64,000 bases of DNA, from assembly GCF_030013595.1 (NCBI RefSeq), contig NZ_CP122768.1, one strand, 5' to 3'. Under the pieces are notes generated by a model that made no database searches, was not told the DNA's origin, and saw only the letters and a list, made by a program, of their open reading frames with translations. Position 1 is the first letter of the stretch; the number at the start of each line of letters is the position of its first letter. Position numbers and translations under genes: made by a program. Below, piece after piece: positions 5,627-62,174 of the stretch. Source of the stretch: Escherichia coli (GTDB lineage: Bacteria; Pseudomonadota; Gammaproteobacteria; Enterobacterales; Enterobacteriaceae).

Positions 5627-5670
5627 ATTGTTATTCAATAAATTCGCTTTAATAGTGATTAATTTATTAT

Positions 5671-5706
5671 TAAACCTGCTCCAAATATTATTATTTGGCA
5701 GGTTTA
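5671..5706 (+). terminator. Hairpin downstream of kdpE (candidate terminator)
   Basis: Inverted repeat TAAACCTGC...GCAGGTTTA followed by ATTTCTT. Confidence 0.45.
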
Positions 5707-5900
5707 ATTTCTTAACGCAAATATAAAACACGAAATTACAACATTTAAGTAACAAAACAGCATCTAATATGGCAATATTCATAATTAATGATTTATTATC
5801 TGGGGTATGATCGTTTTTTGTTGATCTTCTTCACAGATTATAGCCATTTCATGGATAGAATAACTCTACCTTCAACTGACACAGCAAGAGGTAAAGGTAA

Positions 5901-6005
5901 ATGGAAAATAATAACCGCTTAATGCCTCATATAAGGCGGACAACCCATATCATGAAGTTTGCCCATCGTAATAGTTTTGACTTTCATTTCTTTAATGCCC
6001 GCTAG
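5901..6005 (+). CDS. speFL: speF leader arrest peptide SpeFL (34 codons)
   Basis: ATG at 5901 preceded by AAGAGG/AAAGG; hand translation MENNNRLMPHIRRTTHIMKFAHRNSFDFHFFNAR then TAG at 6003-6005; about 300 nt upstream of speF; too short for the ORF track. Confidence 0.8.
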   Translation: MENNNRLMPHIRRTTHIMKFAHRNSFDFHFFNAR

Positions 6006-6315
6006 TCTTCTGACTAAAGGGCACCCCAACGTACAGGTCTCCCTGACTTTAAGCATTACAGGTTAATACCTGTATCCCTCGGTGCTCATATACTGCTAAC
6101 CCTTTTAAACTCTAAATAATTCGAGTCGCAGCACTTGCAACTTGAGGTATGACGAGTATAGCCAGTTACCGGGCTGGTCTGGGTTATTGCATCTACAAAA
6201 AGCAAACTACTGATTTATTTATCAGCGGTGGGGTTTTGCTTTTTTTCCGGCGTGATCGATTTCTCCTTTGAGAAATTGAGGACCTGCTATTACCTGAAAT
6301 AAAGAGATGAACAAA

Positions 6316-8514
6316 ATGTCAGAATTAAAAATTGCCGTTAGTCGTTCTTGCCCGGATTGTTTTTCAACTCATCGCACATGCGTGAATATTGACGAAAGTA
6401 ATTATATTGACGTTGCCGCCATTATTTTATCGGTCAATGATGTGGAACGTGGAAAACTCGATGAAATAGACGCTACTGGCTATGGCATTCCTGTTTTTAT
6501 TGCAACGGAAAATGAAGAACGTGTACCCGCAGAATATCTGCCACGTATTTCTGGTGTCTTCGAACATTGCGAATCACGTAAAGAGTTTTATGGACGTCAG
6601 TTAGAAACCGCTGCAAGCCATTATGAAACGCAACTGCGCCCGCCCTTCTTCCGCGCACTGGTCGATTATGTTAATCAGGGCAATAGTGCTTTTGACTGCC
6701 CTGGTCATCAGGGGGGTGAGTTTTTCCGTCGCCATCCGGCAGGCAATCAGTTCGTGGAATACTTTGGTGAGGCGCTGTTCCGTGCTGACTTGTGCAACGC
6801 CGACGTAGCGATGGGCGATCTGCTGATTCACGAAGGCGCGCCATGCATTGCACAGCAACATGCGGCTAAAGTCTTTAATGCCGATAAAACCTATTTCGTT
6901 TTAAACGGTACTTCATCTTCTAATAAAGTGGTCTTAAACGCATTGCTGACGCCGGGCGATCTGGTGTTGTTTGACCGCAATAACCATAAATCTAACCACC
7001 ACGGTGCGTTGCTACAGGCTGGCGCGACACCGGTTTATCTGGAAACCGCACGTAACCCGTATGGTTTTATCGGTGGTATTGACGCTCACTGTTTTGAAGA
7101 AAGTTACCTGCGTGAGCTGATTATAGAAGTTGCACCGCAGCGGGCAAAAGAGGCTCGTCCTTTCCGCCTCGCCGTTATTCAGCTAGGCACTTACGACGGT
7201 ACGATTTATAACGCCCGTCAGGTGGTGGATAAAATTGGTCATCTGTGTGACTACATCCTCTTTGACTCCGCATGGGTCGGCTATGAGCAGTTTATCCCGA
7301 TGATGGCGGACTGTTCACCACTGTTGCTGGATCTTAATGAGAACGATCCGGGTATTCTGGTTACGCAATCCGTACATAAACAGCAGGCTGGTTTTTCTCA
7401 AACTTCACAAATCCATAAAAAAGACAACCACATCAAAGGGCAACAGCGTTATGTACCGCACAAACGCATGAACAACGCCTTTATGATGCACGCCTCCACC
7501 AGCCCGTTCTATCCGCTGTTTGCCGCACTGGATATCAACGCCAAAATGCATGAAGGTGTCAGCGGTCGTAATATGTGGATGGATTGTGTGGTAAATGGCA
7601 TTAATGCCCGCAAACTGATCCTCGATAACTGTCAGCATATTCGTCCGTTCGTACCTGAACTGGTGGATGGTAAACCCTGGCAGTCGTATGAAACAGCGCA
7701 AATTGCGGTTGATCTGCGCTTCTTCCAGTTTGTACCAGGGGAACACTGGCATTCTTTTGAAGGCTATGCAGAGAATCAATACTTTGTTGATCCGTGCAAA
7801 CTGTTGCTGACAACCCCAGGTATTGATGCACGTAACGGCGAATATGAAGCGTTCGGTGTACCCGCGACGATTCTTGCTAATTTCCTGCGCGAAAATGGCG
7901 TAGTGCCGGAAAAATGCGATCTTAACTCCATCCTCTTCCTGCTGACTCCAGCAGAAGATATGGCCAAACTTCAGCAACTTGTTGCCCTGCTGGTACGCTT
8001 CGAAAAACTGCTGGAATCTGATGCGCCGCTGGCGGAAGTGCTACCTTCCATCTACAAACAGCATGAAGAGCGCTACGCCGGTTATACGCTTCGTCAGTTG
8101 TGCCAGGAAATGCATGATTTGTATGCCCGCCACAACGTGAAACAACTGCAAAAAGAGATGTTCCGTAAGGAACACTTCCCACGCGTCAGCATGAATCCGC
8201 AAGAAGCTAACTACGCCTATTTACGCGGTGAAGTGGAGCTGGTTCGTCTGCCGGATGCAGAAGGCCGTATCGCTGCCGAAGGTGCGCTTCCTTATCCTCC
8301 GGGTGTGCTGTGTGTTGTTCCGGGTGAAATCTGGGGTGGTGCTGTTTTGCGTTACTTCAGCGCTCTGGAAGAAGGGATCAACCTGCTGCCAGGTTTTGCA
8401 CCGGAGCTGCAGGGTGTCTATATCGAAGAACATGATGGTCGTAAGCAAGTTTGGTGCTATGTCATCAAGCCTCGTGATGCGCAAAGCACCCTGTTGAAAG
8501 GGGAAAAATTATGA
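6316..8514 (+). CDS. speF: Inducible ornithine decarboxylase SpeF (PLP-dependent)
   Basis: ORF track 6307..8514; start placed at ATG 6316 (MSELKIAV...) with AAGAG 10 nt upstream; ATG 6307 is the alternative; full-length match to SpeF. Confidence 0.92.
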   Translation: MSELKIAVSRSCPDCFSTHRTCVNIDESNYIDVAAIILSVNDVERGKLDEIDATGYGIPVFIATENEERVPAEYLPRISGVFEHCESRKEFYGRQLETAASHYETQLRPPFFRALVDYVNQGNSAFDCPGHQGGEFFRRHPAGNQFVEYFGEALFRADLCNADVAMGDLLIHEGAPCIAQQHAAKVFNADKTYFVLNGTSSSNKVVLNALLTPGDLVLFDRNNHKSNHHGALLQAGATPVYLETARNPYGFIGGIDAHCFEESYLRELIIEVAPQRAKEARPFRLAVIQLGTYDGTIYNARQVVDKIGHLCDYILFDSAWVGYEQFIPMMADCSPLLLDLNENDPGILVTQSVHKQQAGFSQTSQIHKKDNHIKGQQRYVPHKRMNNAFMMHASTSPFYPLFAALDINAKMHEGVSGRNMWMDCVVNGINARKLILDNCQHIRPFVPELVDGKPWQSYETAQIAVDLRFFQFVPGEHWHSFEGYAENQYFVDPCKLLLTTPGIDARNGEYEAFGVPATILANFLRENGVVPEKCDLNSILFLLTPAEDMAKLQQLVALLVRFEKLLESDAPLAEVLPSIYKQHEERYAGYTLRQLCQEMHDLYARHNVKQLQKEMFRKEHFPRVSMNPQEANYAYLRGEVELVRLPDAEGRIAAEGALPYPPGVLCVVPGEIWGGAVLRYFSALEEGINLLPGFAPELQGVYIEEHDGRKQVWCYVIKPRDAQSTLLKGEKL

Positions 8515-9830
8515 GTCAGGCTAAATCGAACAAAATGGGCGTCGTTCAGTTAACCATACTGACGATGGTCAACATGATGGGCTCCGGTATCATCATGCTG
8601 CCGACAAAGCTTGCCGAAGTTGGGACAATTTCAATTATCTCCTGGCTGGTGACAGCCGTAGGCTCAATGGCACTGGCATGGGCATTCGCAAAATGCGGTA
8701 TGTTCAGCCGTAAATCAGGCGGTATGGGCGGTTATGCGGAGTATGCTTTCGGTAAATCCGGGAACTTTATGGCGAACTATACCTACGGCGTCTCACTGCT
8801 AATTGCTAACGTCGCGATTGCTATTTCGGCGGTTGGTTACGGCACCGAACTGCTCGGCGCGAGTTTGTCGCCAGTGCAGATTGGTCTTGCGACCATCGGG
8901 GTGCTGTGGATTTGTACCGTGGCTAACTTTGGTGGTGCGCGCATTACCGGGCAAATCAGTAGCATTACCGTGTGGGGGGTCATTATTCCGGTGGTAGGCC
9001 TGTGCGTTATCGGCTGGTTCTGGTTTAGCCCGACGCTTTACGTTGATTCCTGGAATCCGCATCATGCACCGTTCTTCAGTGCGGTAGGTTCTTCCATCGC
9101 TATGACGCTGTGGGCTTTTCTTGGTCTGGAGTCTGCGTGTGCGAATACTGATGTAGTGGAAAACCCGGAACGTAATGTGCCAATCGCGGTACTCGGCGGT
9201 ACGTTAGGTGCGGCGGTGATTTATATCGTCTCCACCAACGTGATTGCAGGGATTGTGCCTAATATGGAGCTGGCAAATTCAACGGCACCATTTGGCCTGG
9301 CCTTCGCACAGATGTTCACGCCAGAAGTGGGTAAAGTCATTATGGCGCTGATGGTGATGTCCTGCTGCGGTTCGCTGCTTGGCTGGCAGTTCACCATTGC
9401 CCAGGTGTTTAAATCTTCATCTGATGAAGGCTACTTCCCTAAAATTTTCTCCCGTGTAACCAAAGTGGATGCACCGGTGCAGGGAATGTTGACCATTGTG
9501 ATTATCCAGAGCGGGTTGGCGCTGATGACGATTAGCCCGTCGCTAAACAGTCAGTTCAACGTGCTGGTTAACCTGGCCGTGGTGACCAATATCATTCCGT
9601 ATATTCTGTCAATGGCGGCATTAGTCATTATTCAGAAGGTCGCTAATGTGCCCCCCTCAAAAGCGAAAGTTGCAAACTTTGTTGCTTTTGTTGGCGCGAT
9701 GTACAGCTTTTATGCGCTGTACTCATCCGGGGAAGAAGCCATGCTATACGGTTCCATCGTGACCTTCCTCGGTTGGACACTGTATGGTCTGGTCTCACCA
9801 CGCTTTGAACTGAAAAATAAACACGGTTAA
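8511..9830 (+). CDS. potE: Putrescine-ornithine antiporter PotE (439 aa)
   Basis: ORF overlaps speF stop (ATGA); polytopic APC-family transporter; speF-potE operon order. Confidence 0.95.
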   Translation: MSQAKSNKMGVVQLTILTMVNMMGSGIIMLPTKLAEVGTISIISWLVTAVGSMALAWAFAKCGMFSRKSGGMGGYAEYAFGKSGNFMANYTYGVSLLIANVAIAISAVGYGTELLGASLSPVQIGLATIGVLWICTVANFGGARITGQISSITVWGVIIPVVGLCVIGWFWFSPTLYVDSWNPHHAPFFSAVGSSIAMTLWAFLGLESACANTDVVENPERNVPIAVLGGTLGAAVIYIVSTNVIAGIVPNMELANSTAPFGLAFAQMFTPEVGKVIMALMVMSCCGSLLGWQFTIAQVFKSSSDEGYFPKIFSRVTKVDAPVQGMLTIVIIQSGLALMTISPSLNSQFNVLVNLAVVTNIIPYILSMAALVIIQKVANVPPSKAKVANFVAFVGAMYSFYALYSSGEEAMLYGSIVTFLGWTLYGLVSPRFELKNKHG

Positions 9831-9841
9831 TTAAGCAAAGC

Positions 9842-9875
9842 AAAAAAGGGCGATCTTCCGACCGCCCTTTTTCTT
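9842..9875. terminator. Bidirectional rho-independent terminator between potE and pgm
   Basis: AAAAAGGGCG-loop-CGCCCTTTTT hairpin with A-run and T-run on either side, between convergent genes. Confidence 0.7.
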
Positions 9876-16200: not shown

Positions 16201-16209
16201 TCGCCGTAA
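16201..16209. repeat. Target-site duplication, left copy (TCGCCGTAA)
   Basis: Identical 9-mer directly abuts both ends of the IS. Confidence 0.9.
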
Positions 16210-17266
16210 GGCTTTGTTGAATAAATCGAACTTTTGCTGAGTTGAAGGATCAGATCACGCATCCTCCCGACAACACAGACCATTCCGTGGCAAAGCAAAA
16301 GTTCAGAATCACCAACTGGTCCACCTACAACAAAGCTCTCATCAACCGTGGCTCCCTCACTTTCTGGCTGGATGATGAAGCGATTCAGGCCTGGTATGAG
16401 TCGGCAACGCCTTCATCACGAGGAAGGCCCCAGCGCTATTCTGATCTCGCCATCACCACCGTTCTGGTGATTAAACGCGTATTCCGGCTGACCCTGCGGG
16501 CTGCGCAGGGCTTTATTGATTCCATTTTTTCTCTGATGAACGTTCCGCTACGCTGCCCGGATTACAGCTGTGTCAGCAGGCGGGCAAAGTCGGTTAATGT
16601 CAGTTTCAAAACGCCCACCCGGGGTGAAATCGCACACCTGGTAATTGATTCCACCGGGCTGAAGGTCTTCGGTGAAGGCGAGTGGAAAGTCAAAAAGCAT
16701 GGCCAGGAACGCCGCCGTATCTGGCGTAAGCTGCATCTCGCCGTTGACAGTAAAACACATGAAATCATCTGCGCTGACCTGTCGCTGAACAACGTTACGG
16801 ACTCAGAGGCCTTCCCCGGGTTAATCCGGCAAACCCACCGGAAAATCAGGTCAGCCGCCGCCGATGGCGCTTACGATACCCGGCTATGTCACGATGAACT
16901 GCGGCGTAAGAAAATCAGCGCGCTTATCCCTCCCCGAAAAGGTGCGGGTTACTGGCCCGGTGAATATGCAGACCGTAACCGTGCAGTGGCTAATCAGCGA
17001 ATGACCGGGAGTAATGCGCGGTGGAAATGGACAACAGATTACAACCGTCGCTCGATAGCGGAAACGGCGATGTACCGGGTAAAACAGCTGTTCGGGGGTT
17101 CACTGACGCTGCGTGACTACGATGGTCAGGTTGCGGAGGCTATGGCCCTGGTACGAGCGCTGAACAAAATGACGAAAGCAGGTATGCCTGAAAGCGTGCG
17201 TATTGCCTGAAAACACAACCCGCTACGGGGGAGACTTACCCAAAATCTGATTTATTCAACAAAGCC
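16210..17266 (+). mobile_element. IS903-type insertion sequence (IS5 family), 1057 bp, complete
   Basis: Perfect 18-bp terminal inverted repeats GGCTTTGTTGAATAAATC (16210-16227 and 17249-17266, reverse complement); single transposase ORF; 9-bp flanking direct repeat; length and end sequence match my recollection of IS903. Confidence 0.9.
16287..17210 (+). CDS. IS903-type DDE transposase (about 307 aa from GTG 16287; ORF track gives 322 aa from ATG 16242)
   Basis: Translation ...[36 protein letters not shown]...AADGAYDT... matches the IS903/Tn903 transposase as I recall it; ORF lies wholly within the IRs. Confidence 0.85.
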
Positions 17267-17275
17267 TCGCCGTAA
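17267..17275. repeat. Target-site duplication, right copy (TCGCCGTAA)
   Basis: Identical to 16201-16209. Confidence 0.9.
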
Positions 17276-36656: not shown

Positions 36657-36937
36657 TTGTTATACAAGGCAAAGCTTGAACCAGCATCAGTACAACCCGG
36701 TTGCACCACAGCAATCCACGGGTAGCACCAAAAGAGTGCATTTTAAGAATTTTGCTTCGGAATGGTGCGGCGCATCTCGCAAAAACAAACAATAAAACAG
36801 CAATATCTTTACATTTAGCCAAACTAAATGTTACCTAACAGGCACAACACTGCACAATAAAGTTGCAGACGATAACAACACAAACACTCACAACGGGTAT
36901 CCATGCGTTCTTAACGCAGAAGATAAAGGAGTTGGAT

Positions 36938-41214: not shown

Positions 41215-41239
41215 GCCGGATGACATCACGCCATCCGGC
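41215..41239. terminator. Hairpin between convergent rihA and ybeL
   Basis: GCCGGATG-loop-CATCCGGC; no strong T tract. Confidence 0.4.
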
Positions 41240-41252
41240 ACCACTCATTTCA

Positions 41253-55376: not shown

Positions 55377-56330
55377 GTGGATAGTAATAATCAAATTGAA
55401 ACCTGTTTAAGCAGAAAGTCGTCAGAAGGTAAACCACAAATATTTACAACCTTACGAAATATTGATCTTAACCTTCTGACTATTTTTGAAGCTGTATATG
55501 TACATAAAGGGATCGTTAATGCAGCGAAAGTGCTTAATCTGACACCCTCGGCAATCAGTCAGTCTATTCAGAAACTGCGCGTTATATTCCCTGACCCATT
55601 GTTTATTCGCAAAGGCCAGGGTGTCACTCCTACCGCATTTGCGATGCATCTACATGAGTATATCAGTCAGGGCCTTGAGTCCATTCTTGGCGCGCTGGAT
55701 ATCGAAGGAAGCTATGATAAGCAACGAACGATAACTATTGCGACCACCCCCTCGGTCGGAGCCCTGGTCCTTCCTGTCATCTATCGGGCGATTAAATCTC
55801 ACTATCCGCAGCTTTTACTGCGCAACCCGCCCATCAGCGACGCGGAAAACCAACTCAGTCAGTTTCAAACCGATCTCATCATCGATAACATGTTTTGCAC
55901 CAATCGTACGGTGCAACATCATGTTCTGTTCACCGACAATATGGTGTTAATTTGCCGTGAGGGAAATCCACTACTCTCTTTAGAAGATGACAGGGAGACT
56001 ATCGACAACGCTGCGCATATACTCCTGTTACCGGAAGGGCAAAATTTCAGCGGTCTGCGGCAGAGAGTTCAAGAGATGTTTCCGGACCGGCAAATCAGTT
56101 TCACCAGCTACAACATTTTGACAATCGCTGCACTGGTTGCCAACAGTGACATGTTAGCGATTATTCCCAGCCGTTTTTATAACCTGTTTAGCCGTTGCTG
56201 GCCGCTGGAAAAACTGCCTTTTCCGTCCTTAAATGAGGAGCAAATAGATTTCTCTATCCACTACAACAAATTCAGCCTGCGTGATCCCATCCTGCACGGG
56301 GTAATAGATGTTATCCGTAATGCATTTTGA
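55377..56330 (+). CDS. ybeF: LysR-family transcriptional regulator YbeF (317 aa), GTG start
   Basis: N-terminal LysR HTH (LNLLTIFEAVYVHKGIVNAAKVLNLTPSAISQSIQKLR). Confidence 0.88.
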   Translation: MDSNNQIETCLSRKSSEGKPQIFTTLRNIDLNLLTIFEAVYVHKGIVNAAKVLNLTPSAISQSIQKLRVIFPDPLFIRKGQGVTPTAFAMHLHEYISQGLESILGALDIEGSYDKQRTITIATTPSVGALVLPVIYRAIKSHYPQLLLRNPPISDAENQLSQFQTDLIIDNMFCTNRTVQHHVLFTDNMVLICREGNPLLSLEDDRETIDNAAHILLLPEGQNFSGLRQRVQEMFPDRQISFTSYNILTIAALVANSDMLAIIPSRFYNLFSRCWPLEKLPFPSLNEEQIDFSIHYNKFSLRDPILHGVIDVIRNAF

Positions 56331-56538
56331 AAAAGTATTGTTACAGCCAGATCACAGCGAAGAACGAAAAAATGGCACAATCCAACAACAATTTTACATT
56401 TTCGCGACCGCTTTGGCTGCTTTCAGGTCCGTTTCAATGATATACTGCCAGTCGTTAATTCAAAAATAGTTGATAATTACAACAATCTATTGAATTGAAA
56501 CGCTTTCCTTCGTAATTCGCAACTGGAACACGCACGCT

Positions 56539-57504
56539 ATGAGTAAACCCATTGTGATGGAACGCGGTGTTAAATACCGCGATGCCGATAAGATGGCCCT
56601 TATCCCGGTTAAAAACGTGGCAACAGAGCGCGAAGCCCTGCTGCGCAAGCCGGAATGGATGAAAATCAAGCTTCCAGCGGACTCTACACGTATCCAGGGC
56701 ATCAAAGCCGCAATGCGCAAAAATGGCCTGCATTCTGTCTGCGAGGAAGCCTCCTGCCCTAACCTGGCGGAATGCTTCAACCACGGCACAGCAACGTTTA
56801 TGATCCTCGGCGCTATTTGTACCCGCCGTTGTCCGTTCTGTGACGTTGCCCACGGTCGCCCGGTAGCTCCGGATGCCAATGAACCAGTGAAACTGGCGCA
56901 GACCATTGCCGATATGGCGCTGCGTTATGTGGTTATCACCTCCGTTGACCGTGATGACCTGCGCGATGGCGGTGCCCAACACTTTGCGGATTGCATTACT
57001 GCCATTCGGGAAAAAAGCCCGCAAATCAAAATTGAAACTCTGGTGCCGGATTTCCGCGGTCGTATGGATCGTGCTCTGGATATTCTGACCGCCACACCAC
57101 CAGATGTATTCAACCATAACCTGGAAAACGTACCGCGTATTTACCGTCAGGTACGGCCTGGTGCAGATTACAACTGGTCGCTGAAGCTGCTGGAACGCTT
57201 TAAAGAAGCGCATCCGGAAATCCCGACCAAGTCTGGTCTGATGGTGGGTCTGGGTGAAACCAATGAAGAAATTATTGAGGTAATGCGCGACCTGCGCCGT
57301 CATGGTGTGACGATGCTAACGCTGGGGCAATATTTGCAGCCAAGCCGCCATCACCTGCCGGTTCAACGTTACGTTAGCCCGGATGAGTTCGACGAAATGA
57401 AAGCCGAAGCGCTGGCGATGGGCTTTACCCATGCTGCATGCGGTCCGTTTGTCCGCTCGTCTTACCACGCCGATTTGCAGGCGAAAGGGATGGAAGTTAA
57501 GTAA
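56539..57504 (+). CDS. lipA: Lipoyl synthase LipA (321 aa)
   Basis: Radical-SAM CxxxCxxC (CTRRCPFC) plus N-terminal auxiliary cluster cysteines. Confidence 0.96.
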
Positions 57505-57533
57505 TCCTGTAATAATTACTTACATCTATCTGA

Positions 57534-57567
57534 TAAAAAACCCGCTTTTTGAAGCGGGTTTTTTTGT
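57534..57567. terminator. Bidirectional terminator between lipA and tatE
   Basis: AAAAACCCGCTT-TTTGA-AGCGGGTTTTTTT hairpin flanked by A-run and T-run. Confidence 0.8.
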
Positions 57568-57605
57568 ATCGAACAAGATATTGAGGGAGCGTCCTGCTCG
57601 CCACG

Positions 57606-57809
57606 TCACTCTTTATGAGAGAGCTTTTCAGCCTGAAGATCAACGTCTGCGCCTTTTTTCGCCGCAGCATCGTCATCATTCATCGCCTTCTTGAACCCTT
57701 TAATGGCCGCTCCAAGGTCTCCGCCCAGCGTACGTAACTTCTTAGTCCCAAACAGCAGAACGACCAGCGCCGCAACTACCAGCAGTTTGGTAATACTAAT
57801 CTCACCCAT
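57606..57809 (-). CDS. tatE: Twin-arginine translocase subunit TatE (67 aa)
   Basis: TatA/E family N-terminal TM helix plus amphipathic helix. Confidence 0.93.
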
Positions 57810-57937
57810 AGATACCTTCTTGACATATAACCGGCAACAGAACGCGCCTTAAAAACCAGAGAATATTAACGGTCATTCGACGCGCGCACACAATAGCAAT
57901 CTGTAACAAGGTGAATCAAGCGCCGAGTAAAAAAACA

Positions 57938-58732
57938 TCATAATAATTGCGGCGGCGCAAAGCGACGGTTGTTTAAAACGGGAAGTTGCGCGCGCACCTG
58001 ACGCACACGTTCGGGCGTCACTTCCGCCATAATGAGTGCAGGCATTTCTGACGCTGCCGCAATGGTGACGCCAAAGGGATCTATAATCCGGCTTTGCCCG
58101 ATATTTTTGTTCCCGCACTCCCCCGCCGCCACCATATAACAGGTGGTATCCAGCGCACGAGCGGCAAGCAACGTTGACCAGTGATGCTCTTTGAGCGGCC
58201 CACGAACCCAGGCGGCAGGAAGTACCAGGATTTCAGCTCCCTGTAATGCCTGTGCCAGCGCCAGCTCTGGAAAGCGTAAGTCATAACAGGTCATCAGACC
58301 GACCTTCATCCCTTCCACCTCCAGTAACGGAGCTATTTCATTACCAGCATCAACATGGCGTGATTCCTGAATGGCAAATGCATCATAGAGATGCAGTTTG
58401 GCATAACGGGCGACGATGTTTCCTGCCTGTAGCGCCACCAGCATATTCCATGCGCGCCCCGGCGTTGAAGGAACATGAATCGTCAGAATTGTCGTCATCA
58501 TGTTACGTTTACTTTCTCGCCGTAAACGTCCGAGGAATTCGCCTTCCAGCAGCTGTGCTGATTTAACCGATAGATCTGCATCATGATCATCGCGCGCCAG
58601 CAATGCTTCCGGCAGGACAAACAGCGATACGTCGTTTTCCGCCGCCTGCGCCATCAACGAGGCACAAATCTCAGCGTTCTTTTCCCACACAGATGTAACA
58701 GCAAACTGTCCTGCGGCAACCAGCATTGCCAC
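57938..58732 (-). CDS. ybeM: C-N hydrolase (nitrilase-superfamily) protein, uninterrupted 264-aa ORF
   Basis: ORF 57938..58732; catalytic triad candidates E42 (LPE), K112 (YAKLHL), C149 (MTCYD). Confidence 0.8.
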
Positions 58733-58821
58733 CTCCTCCTGTCAGAGTCGTAAAATTCGCCAACGGCGATTATTCGGCGTTACACTTATCACTCATACAA
58801 ATCAAATAGCAGGATTTTGCA

Positions 58822-59205
58822 GTGTTACAACTTCTTTTAGCAGTTTTTATTGGCGGTGGTACGGGAAGCGTGGCGAGATGGCTGTTAAGTATGCGATTTA
58901 ACCCGCTGCATCAAGCGATTCCGTTGGGGACGCTGGCTGCAAACCTGATTGGGGCATTCATCATAGGAATGGGATTCGCCTGGTTTAGCAGGATGACGAA
59001 CATTGATCCAGTGTGGAAAGTATTAATCACCACCGGATTTTGTGGCGGTCTAACAACCTTCTCAACATTTTCGGCAGAAGTGGTGTTTTTGTTACAAGAG
59101 GGCCGCTTTGGCTGGGCGTTACTGAACGTTTTCGTCAACCTTTTGGGGTCTTTTGCCATGACCGCACTGGCTTTCTGGCTGTTTTCCGCCTCAACCGCAC
59201 ACTAA
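58822..59205 (+). CDS. crcB: Fluoride channel CrcB/FluC (127 aa)
   Basis: Four-TM small membrane protein with GGxTTFSTF motif. Confidence 0.93.
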
Positions 59206-59211
59206 AGACCA

Positions 59212-59240
59212 AAAAAAACCCGCTGATTAAGCGGGTTTTG
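59212..59240. terminator. Bidirectional terminator between crcB and cspE
   Basis: AAAACCCGCT-GATTA-AGCGGGTTTT hairpin. Confidence 0.75.
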
Positions 59241-59258
59241 AATTCTTGCTGACGTATC

Positions 59259-59468
59259 TTACAGAGCGATTACGTTTGCAGCAGAAGGGCCTTTGGCACC
59301 GTTAGTGATTTCGAACTCTACGCGCTGACCTTCAGCAAGAGTTTTAAAACCATTAGTCTGGATTGCAGAGAAGTGTACGAACACGTCTTTGCTGCCGTCT
59401 TCCGGAGTAATGAAACCGAATCCTTTGGACTCATTAAACCACTTAACGTTACCTTTAATCTTAGACAT
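59259..59468 (-). CDS. cspE: Cold-shock-like protein CspE (69 aa)
   Basis: ORF track 59259..59552; start at [20 protein letters not shown] (RNP1 motif). Confidence 0.95.
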
Positions 59469-59642
59469 CAAAATTACCTTTACATGAAAAATAGACACAA
59501 ATGCTGTGTCGGTTACCAGTACACCAATTGTGGTACGCTTTGTCCAGTGCAACTTTACTAAAAAGTGATAAAAGTCGCGTTATTTTTGATGTTAATTATT
59601 TTACTCATTGATTTTAAAGAGTTTACTAAAATTTCATTTGTC

Positions 59643-60203
59643 TCAAAACTGAAAGCTCATCCAGGCAAAGTACACATTGCCATTGTTATAGGTACCCGGA
59701 ATGTAGGTCATCTGAAAAGTCACTGGACCATAACCCACAGAGGCCAATGGCAGTAGAACCGGGAGAGGGATGTAATTCCAGTTATCGCGTGCCGTTACGC
59801 CAGCGGTGAATCCCAGACCTAAATGAAAATTTTCATCCGCCAGCGGTCGCCAGGTACTTTCCCATCCGTATCCGGCAATCGGTTCCCATTTGTTCCACGA
59901 GTCCTTAAATGCCATGGCATACAGGCCATGCCAGTTTCCTTTTTCATCCCAACGCGACAGGCCAAAACCGCCACCCCACGGTCGCTCGTTATAGCGATCG
60001 GTTTTTTCTTTGTCGTAAGCGAAACGAGCATGCCAGGTGATGGCAGGAATATATAAATCATAATGTTCTGGCTGTTGCCAGGTTTGTGTAATATTTTCTC
60101 CAAACGTTGTCATCCACTCATCTGCGTTAGCAAAAACTTTACCAACGCTGATTAACTGAATAAAAACAAAGGAAAAGATAGCGACATATTTACTCACGTT
60201 CAT
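59643..60203 (-). CDS. pagP: Lipid A palmitoyltransferase PagP (186 aa)
   Basis: ORF track 59643..60227; start at [16 protein letters not shown]; outer-membrane beta-barrel. Confidence 0.93.
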
Positions 60204-60685
60204 TTGTGACCATAAAACATTTATCAAAAATCTACTACTAGCATAGCAAAGCTACAATTAACATAACCTTAATAGCCCCAACATAAAGAACAATCTGAAT
60301 AGCTGCTCTATTTATTTCCGCTTGTTTAAGTTAAATATTTCCGCGCATCGATTAAAGATGATGTATCGTTTTCTGCGATGGGAATAGTCATAAAAAAACC
60401 AAGTCTTTTTTGATGACAAAATACAACCAAGAAAAAATTACTTTATTTTTTAATAGGATACAAAAAACCTCTTAACGAAGAATATATTATATATCGTCAA
60501 CCTATGCTCATGTTAGATTATTTTTTGAGCGCACAGCCGCAGCTAACACCATTGCAATTAACAAATTTGCATCAATCCACCATCAATTTACACACATTAT
60601 TATGTGATAATTGCCAACCGCTAAATATGCGTTTTGTTATCTATGTATAAAAACAGCAAATTCAATGTCTTAATGGCAGTTTTTC

Positions 60686-60699
60686 TTGATTTTAATCAG
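60686..60699. promoter_or_regulatory. Candidate FNR site (TTGAT-TTTA-ATCAG) upstream of dcuC
   Basis: 9 of 10 match to TTGAT-N4-ATCAA, about 90 bp upstream of the dcuC ATG. Confidence 0.45.
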
Positions 60700-60788
60700 C
60701 ATTCATCGCCAATTTATTGGGCATATTTTTTCCTTAAGCTTTAGGAATTTTTTATTATTTACTTTGGGGCCTGGAGACAGGAAAAATT

Positions 60789-62174
60789 ATGCAGACATTC
60801 ATTGAACTCCTTATTGGGGTTGTGGTTATTGTGGGTGTAGCTCGCTACATCATTAAAGGGTATTCCGCCACTGGCGTGTTATTTGTCGGTGGCCTGTTAT
60901 TGCTGATTATCAGTGCCATTATGGGGCACAAAGTGTTACCGTCCAGCCAGGCTTCAACAGGCTACAGCGCCACGGATATCGTTGAATACGTTAAAATATT
61001 GCTAATGAGCCGCGGCGGCGACCTCGGCATGATGATTATGATGCTGTGTGGCTTTGCCGCTTACATGACCCATATCGGCGCTAATGATATGGTGGTCAAG
61101 CTGGCGTCAAAACCATTGCAGTATATTAACTCCCCTTACTTGCTGATGATTGCCGCCTATTTTGTCGCCTGTCTGATGTCTCTGGCCGTCTCTTCCGCGA
61201 CCGGTCTGGGTGTTTTGCTGATGGCAACCCTGTTTCCGGTGATGGTAAACGTTGGTATCAGCCGTGGTGCAGCTGCTGCTATTTGTGCCTCCCCGGCGGC
61301 GATTATTCTCGCACCGACTTCAGGGGATGTGGTGCTGGCGGCGCAGGCTTCCGAAATGTCGCTGATTGACTTCGCCTTCAAAACAACGCTGCCTATCTCA
61401 ATTGCTGCAATTATCGGCATGGCAATCGCCCACTTCTTCTGGCAACGTTATCTGGATAAAAAAGAACACATCTCTCATGAAATGTTAGATGTCAGTGAAA
61501 TCACCACCACTGCCCCTGCGTTTTATGCCATTTTGCCGTTCACGCCGATCATCGGAGTGCTGATTTTTGACGGCAAATGGGGTCCGCAATTACACATCAT
61601 CACTATTCTGGTGATTTGTATGCTGATTGCCTCCATTCTGGAGTTCATCCGCAGCTTTAATACCCAGAAAGTTTTCTCTGGTCTGGAAGTGGCTTATCGC
61701 GGGATGGCAGATGCATTTGCAAACGTGGTGATGCTGCTGGTTGCCGCTGGGGTATTCGCTCAGGGGCTTAGCACCATCGGCTTTATTCAAAGTCTGATTT
61801 CTATCGCTACCTCGTTTGGTTCGGCGAGCATCATCCTGATGCTGGTATTGGTGATCCTGACAATGCTGGCGGCAGTCACGACCGGTTCAGGCAATGCGCC
61901 GTTTTATGCGTTTGTTGAGATGATCCCGAAACTGGCGCACTCTTCCGGCATTAACCCGGCGTATTTGACTATCCCAATGCTGCAGGCGTCAAACCTCGGC
62001 CGTACCCTGTCACCCGTTTCTGGCGTAGTCGTTGCGGTTGCCGGGATGGCGAAAATCTCACCATTTGAAGTCGTAAAACGCACCTCGGTGCCGGTGCTTG
62101 TTGGGCTGGTGATTGTTATCGTTGCTACAGAGCTGATGGTGCCAGGAACGGCAGCCGCGGTCACAGGCAAGTAA
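60789..62174 (+). CDS. dcuC: Anaerobic C4-dicarboxylate transporter DcuC (461 aa)
   Basis: ORF 60789..62174; polytopic membrane protein. Confidence 0.93.
   Translation: MQTFIELLIGVVVIVGVARYIIKGYSATGVLFVGGLLLLIISAIMGHKVLPSSQASTGYSATDIVEYVKILLMSRGGDLGMMIMMLCGFAAYMTHIGANDMVVKLASKPLQYINSPYLLMIAAYFVACLMSLAVSSATGLGVLLMATLFPVMVNVGISRGAAAAICASPAAIILAPTSGDVVLAAQASEMSLIDFAFKTTLPISIAAIIGMAIAHFFWQRYLDKKEHISHEMLDVSEITTTAPAFYAILPFTPIIGVLIFDGKWGPQLHIITILVICMLIASILEFIRSFNTQKVFSGLEVAYRGMADAFANVVMLLVAAGVFAQGLSTIGFIQSLISIATSFGSASIILMLVLVILTMLAAVTTGSGNAPFYAFVEMIPKLAHSSGINPAYLTIPMLQASNLGRTLSPVSGVVVAVAGMAKISPFEVVKRTSVPVLVGLVIVIVATELMVPGTAAAVTGK

Follow-up and report, generated by a model that had tools for sequence, protein, structure and literature searches.

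Within the nitrilase superfamily of C-N hydrolases, the Nit2/omega-amidase branch acts on alpha-ketoglutaramate, unlike the Nit1-type enzymes. Yeast Nit2 is taken here to be an orthologue of Nit1, a relationship that is said to go back to work by Peracchi and colleagues in 2017, and the E. coli protein reportedly acts on deaminated glutathione according to the same work. A separate yafV gene is presumably also present in E. coli. One account, citing Peracchi et al. 2017, describes deaminated glutathione as a side-product of transaminases, and its hydrolysis by Nit1, an enzyme present in many bacteria, as recovering 2-oxoglutarate, cysteine and glycine (PMC7041631). YbeM has been equated with NIT1 (PMC8788347), and its gene is differentially expressed in CFT073 (PMC5320621). 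One study, which has a tetA-tetR insertion in ybeM of the K-12 strain MG1655, refers to the gene there as a pseudogene (PMC7242477).

The current MG1655 record lists ybeM under the identifier b4581, not under b0626 as given in an earlier note on this DNA, and annotates it as a pseudogene of 788 bp at 658031..658818. The same locus, in the same orientation between crcB and tatE and with 98.6% nucleotide identity to b4581, is found in the window, by which we mean the whole 64,000-nucleotide stretch of E. coli DNA that was analysed. Here the ybeM-like open reading frame occupies 57938..58732 on the minus strand and runs uninterrupted for 264 codons from a GTG start in the list of open reading frames; the earlier note gives the same positions and length. 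Its downstream neighbour is tatE (57606..57809, minus strand), and the divergent upstream neighbour is the fluoride channel gene crcB (58822..59205, plus strand); this gene order is that of annotated genomes.

A single base accounts for the pseudogene state of the MG1655 copy. Pairwise and multiple alignments show that a G (gene strand), present at 58527..58527 on the minus strand of the window, is missing in MG1655, a 1-bp deletion in codon 69 of the 264-codon open reading frame that converts GGACGTTTACGG into GGACTTTACGG. The K-12-type deletion, which changes GGACGTTT to GGACTTT and shifts the frame past codon 68, is thus absent from the window, and since the G at 58527 is present the frame stays open. 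In MG1655 the N-terminal frame stops about 10 codons past the shift and the remainder of the protein lies in another frame; unlike in the window, the two parts that bear the catalytic Glu, Lys and Cys are split between different frames. The earlier note had tentatively taken ybeM for a pseudogene or truncated product in K-12, which the annotation of b4581 and the missing G bear out, and had proposed that the present strain carries an intact allele, which is confirmed by the G at 58527. The pairwise alignment with MG1655 that it suggested was run and, besides the 1-bp deletion, revealed 10 substitutions in the open reading frame, seven synonymous and three non-synonymous (V35A, V39A and H126R in the 264-codon numbering). 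Its alternative, that the reference annotation is in need of checking, has no support, as the frameshift in MG1655 is real and common to natural isolates whose copies are flagged as frameshifted by PGAP; the pseudogene annotation of K-12 ybeM is sound.

While all 264 codons are open, the protein itself is most likely two residues shorter. In RefSeq relatives ybeM starts at the ATG at 58726, two codons past the GTG, which gives a coding sequence at 57938..58726 on the minus strand with 262 codons and a TGA stop codon at 57938-57940, encoding a predicted deaminated glutathione amidase, a Nit1-type C-N hydrolase. The ATG start is supported by a Shine-Dalgarno-like sequence, GGAGGAGG, read from the sequence at 58732..58739 (minus strand), whose AGGAGG core comes to an end 5 nt upstream of the ATG; the GTG of the 264-codon frame, in contrast, overlaps this Shine-Dalgarno sequence. 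The two additional in-frame codons, GTG GCA at 58727..58732 (minus strand), which account for the 264 codons of the mechanically called frame, are probably untranslated. The length given in the earlier note therefore stands for the open frame, but for the protein the RefSeq start and the Shine-Dalgarno sequence favour 262 amino acids with an ATG start.

Within the 95-nt spacer between crcB and ybeM, a consensus scan of 57550-58900, a crude method, detected no sigma-70-like promoter; across the same 57550-58900 the scan returned two terminator-like sites, which is not above chance expectation. An Rfam scan of 56000-61000 found no fluoride riboswitch in the spacer. The sole match in that scan was a cspA-type thermoregulator (RF01766) at 59211-59569 on the minus strand, with 123 bits (gathering score 78), spanning cspE and its leader. 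Inside ybeM, an out-of-frame open reading frame of 47 codons is located at 58333-58476 (minus strand) and begins with MFLQRRGAH. A peptide of this sequence, encoded by a 29-bp ybeM fragment of UTI89, caused filamentation on over-expression from pBAD24 (PMC6206680), which the authors of that study regard as an effect that has not evolved for that function.

In the protein, the Pfam domain PF00795 (CN_hydrolase) was matched over profile positions 2-255 of 256, with an E-value of 4.3e-41 and 141.4 bits against a gathering cut-off of 23.2, which is far beyond chance and upholds the description of the product as a full-length nitrilase-superfamily protein in the earlier note. Among the NCBIfam models, NF033621 (de_GSH_amidase), the deaminated glutathione amidase family with EC number 3.5.1.128, scored 451.5 bits against a curated cut-off of 355 and was covered at profile positions 2-260 of 260. 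All remaining amidase, nitrilase and NAD-synthase models reached 24-83 bits, compared with their own cut-offs of 133-500; the model of the omega-amidase Nit2/YafV-type family, NF007757, was among those falling short, with 61.5 bits against 249. The location between crcB and tatE and the near-identity to annotated E. coli members are those of an orthologue.

In a comparison with solved structures, the best matches were the Nit domain of NitFhit (1EMS, E = 1.7e-29) and yeast Nit2 (4H5U, 1.1e-26), with mouse Nit2 (2W1V, 4.4e-22) and yeast Nit3 (1F89, 6.4e-20) ranking lower. Taken with the score of NF007757 below its cut-off, these E-values place YbeM nearer to Nit1-type than to Nit2/omega-amidase-type relatives. 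The eukaryotic Nit1-type structures (1EMS and the yeast Nit2 entries 4H5U, 4HG3, 4HG5 and 4HGD) align with YbeM at the E, K, E and C positions with near-full-length coverage, but the sequence similarity is distant, and YbeM is shorter, lacking both the Fhit fusion of 1EMS and the insertions of yeast Nit2. Members of the Nit2/omega-amidase branch (2W1V, 1F89 and the YafV-type family NF007757) have the fold and the catalytic residues in common with YbeM, while the similarity is weaker.

The catalytic residues were located by a HMMER alignment to NitFhit from C. elegans (1EMS), in which we take E54, K127 and C169 to form the catalytic triad; these residues are said to have been described by Pace and colleagues in 2000. 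The catalytic Glu, encoded by GAA at 58607..58609 (minus strand), is E40, or E42 in the 264-codon numbering, within the motif LPE and aligned with residue 54 of 1EMS. The catalytic Lys is K110 (K112; AAA at 58397..58399, minus strand), within AKLHL and aligned with residue 127, and the nucleophilic Cys is C147 (C149; TGT at 58286..58288, minus strand), within TCYD and aligned with C169. A second active-site Glu, E121 (E123; GAA at 58364..58366, minus strand), lies in the motif QES, opposite the 'ES' motif of both 1EMS and 4H5U in the alignment. All four residues occupy conserved positions of the superfamily, and the triad E42, K112 and C149 listed in the earlier note reads exactly as stated there. 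The position aligned with C147 is the only one that is a Cys in one yeast Nit2 structure (4H5U) and a Ser in another (4HGD).

We infer the substrate and the chemistry of YbeM from its family membership and from published work, the individual steps following what is established for Nit1 and for the nitrilase superfamily. Cys147 would attack deaminated glutathione, N-(4-oxoglutaryl)-Cys-Gly, at its amide carbonyl, with Glu40 acting as the general base and Lys110 together with Glu121 stabilising the tetrahedral intermediate. Departure of Cys-Gly would be accompanied by formation of a thioester acyl-enzyme, whose hydrolysis would free 2-oxoglutarate. The reaction may thus serve metabolite repair or salvage.

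Intact ybeM, as found in the window, is the common form of a gene that was known before. Over its full length the gene is identical (100% of nucleotides) to the coding sequence of WP_001305561.1 in strain 7/2, from human faeces in Sweden, and also to that in TUM1223; the YbeM protein of strain 7/2 shows no difference, and the context crcB-ybeM-tatE-lipA is alike. At least 1,000 public contigs encode the exact 262-residue protein, which is named deaminated glutathione amidase there. YbeM of O157:H7 (WP_000959109.1) is identical at 261/262 residues, the exception being H124 in the window and R124 in O157:H7. This position, three residues past Glu121, is an Arg in both the O157 and the K-12 haplotypes. 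At the nucleotide level the window and O157:H7 alleles differ by nine synonymous and one non-synonymous changes (H124/R124), a bias that indicates purifying selection. Among the records listed, E. coli B strain B-LamR carries the full 795-bp open reading frame, and the DE3 laboratory strain Nico21(DE3) has the exact intact 61-mer described below. The weakest match, at 85% in strain UTME-9 (H40), was considered as a divergent ybeM allele and rejected, all genes in the stretch examined there being flagged as frameshifted or incomplete.

To what extent the two states are distributed across the species was determined from exact-match counts among complete E. coli genomes (5,424 matching of 5,426), with a 60-mer standing for the deletion and a 61-mer for the intact sequence. 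The intact 61-mer was exact in 3,625 of the 5,424 matching genomes and the K-12 deletion 60-mer in 860 (~16%); the other genomes were exact for neither, and the non-carriers among the matches listed span the 61 bases with the G kept and one to three substitutions. Intact ybeM is the majority state in E. coli. Eight of ten exact deletion matches sampled came from human, pig or environmental isolates with genomes of 4.8-5.1 Mb. An identical deletion is carried by 300709 (Mozambique), AR_0114, BA92 O2:H16 (Brazil) and Z1323CEC0011 (chicken, Korea), in all four of which PGAP flagged the gene as frameshifted. All eight substitutions that MG1655 has downstream of the deletion recur in these four isolates, a pattern indicative of one origin, as judged from these sequences. 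Every deletion copy examined represents one haplotype, which many wild isolates also bear, and the frameshift is a natural allele, not a laboratory mutation. V35A and V39A, both upstream of the frameshift, are found in MG1655 but not in the four natural carriers of the deletion, which fits relaxed constraint or drift after inactivation. That this old natural allele spread by selection for losing the salvage of deaminated glutathione, and not by neutral hitch-hiking, appears unlikely; if it were so, the window would be a mere wild-type comparator.

The open reading frame is, in our view very probably, an ordinary, predicted functional ybeM allele of a non-K-12 E. coli strain, encoding a 262-residue Nit1-type amidase. 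Three other readings were weighed against this one. The window might stem from a laboratory derivative of K-12 whose ybeM was restored, whether the frameshift had reverted or a small patch had been recombined in. Its sole support is the impression of a K-12 signature elsewhere in the DNA, which had led the earlier note to call the intact allele an awkward fit and behind which there is no computed result. Against it, the open reading frame differs from MG1655 by 10 substitutions besides the indel. In a BLAST alignment of the window to MG1655 651000-736000, eight colinear blocks with 94.7-98.5% identity by segment were obtained across the 64 kb, with 1,384 mismatches in 62.4 kb and 97.8% identity overall, so that the window is nowhere K-12-like. 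Three K-12 marker segments, IS5D, the ybeQ-hscC island and ybfP-ybfG-ybfI, are all absent, and an IS903-family element resides in chiP. The best genomes for the last 25 kb (39001-64000), from a search of 5,426 complete E. coli genomes, are the pig isolates HCP5S3_I2 and LCP30S3_I5 with 100.0% identity, and the top matches listed include no K-12 strain. The window is not K-12, the whole-window divergence refutes a repaired K-12 derivative, the probability of which is vanishingly small, and an intact ybeM is not awkward in a strain outside the K-12 lineage.

The two other readings accept the open frame and differ from ours in what it does. An activity other than that on deaminated glutathione, such as that of an omega-amidase (Nit2/YafV-like), an aliphatic amidase, an N-carbamoylputrescine amidase or a true nitrilase, would share the superfamily fold and the triad; weak cross-matches to aguB, nitrilase, YafV-type amidohydrolase and formamidase models were seen, and sequence is an unreliable guide to substrate within the nitrilase superfamily. 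The competing models nevertheless score far below their cut-offs where NF033621 exceeds its own, the YafV-type NF007757 is a distinct NCBIfam family that ybeM fails to reach, and Nit1-type structures outrank those of the Nit2/omega-amidase type, which together render another activity quite unlikely. The gene could also be open but silent or decaying, that is, unexpressed or dead by missense and on the same path as in K-12. The consensus scan found no promoter, loss is evidently tolerated with the frameshift in 860 complete genomes, and Nit1 loss is described as having no obvious phenotype in mice, yeast and Arabidopsis (PMC7041631). Against this, the differences between the window and O157 alleles are almost all synonymous (9 to 1), every catalytic residue is intact and a strong Shine-Dalgarno sequence precedes the ATG, in contrast to the frameshifted copy of MG1655, which has the extra V35A and V39A as would be seen under relaxed constraint. 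We consider a silent or decaying gene highly unlikely.

K-12 and its wild relatives with the deletion are most likely without YbeM as a glutathione-repair amidase, whereas the frame remains open in most E. coli, a point that is relevant when K-12 serves for studies of glutathione damage and repair. Other findings on this DNA that lean on a K-12 signature in the window need re-examination.

Several structural differences from MG1655 were observed along the window. IS5D, located at 687851-689045 between gltI and lnt in MG1655, is missing, and its flanks are joined directly at a junction at ~36834-36838 with a 4-5 base alignment overlap, as expected for the empty target site. An ~8-kb MG1655 segment with ybeQ-ybeR-djlB-ybeT-ybeU-djlC-hscC (675501-683471) is missing at the junction 41215-41252, where ~36 bases are without a counterpart in the MG1655 alignment. 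The speF-potE block at 5628-9854 has 94.7% identity to MG1655, compared with ~97-98% elsewhere; the alignment is broken between 5628 and 6174, in the spacer of kdpE and speF, and ybfP-ybfG-ybfI (MG1655 715242-716922) is missing at ~9842-9854.

The chitoporin gene chiP is interrupted at 16210-17266 by a 1,057-bp IS903-family element (IS5 family) that is not in MG1655. The element has perfect 18-bp terminal inverted repeats, GGCTTTGTTGAATAAATC, is flanked by a 9-bp target duplication, TCGCCGTAA, at 16201-16209 and 17267-17275, and contains a transposase open reading frame at 16242-17210 (plus strand) with 358 bits on NF033579. In the two pig isolates, HCP5S3_I2 and LCP30S3_I5, 96% of the window query is covered in two pieces with a gap of ~1 kb, which most likely corresponds to the IS903-family element in chiP.
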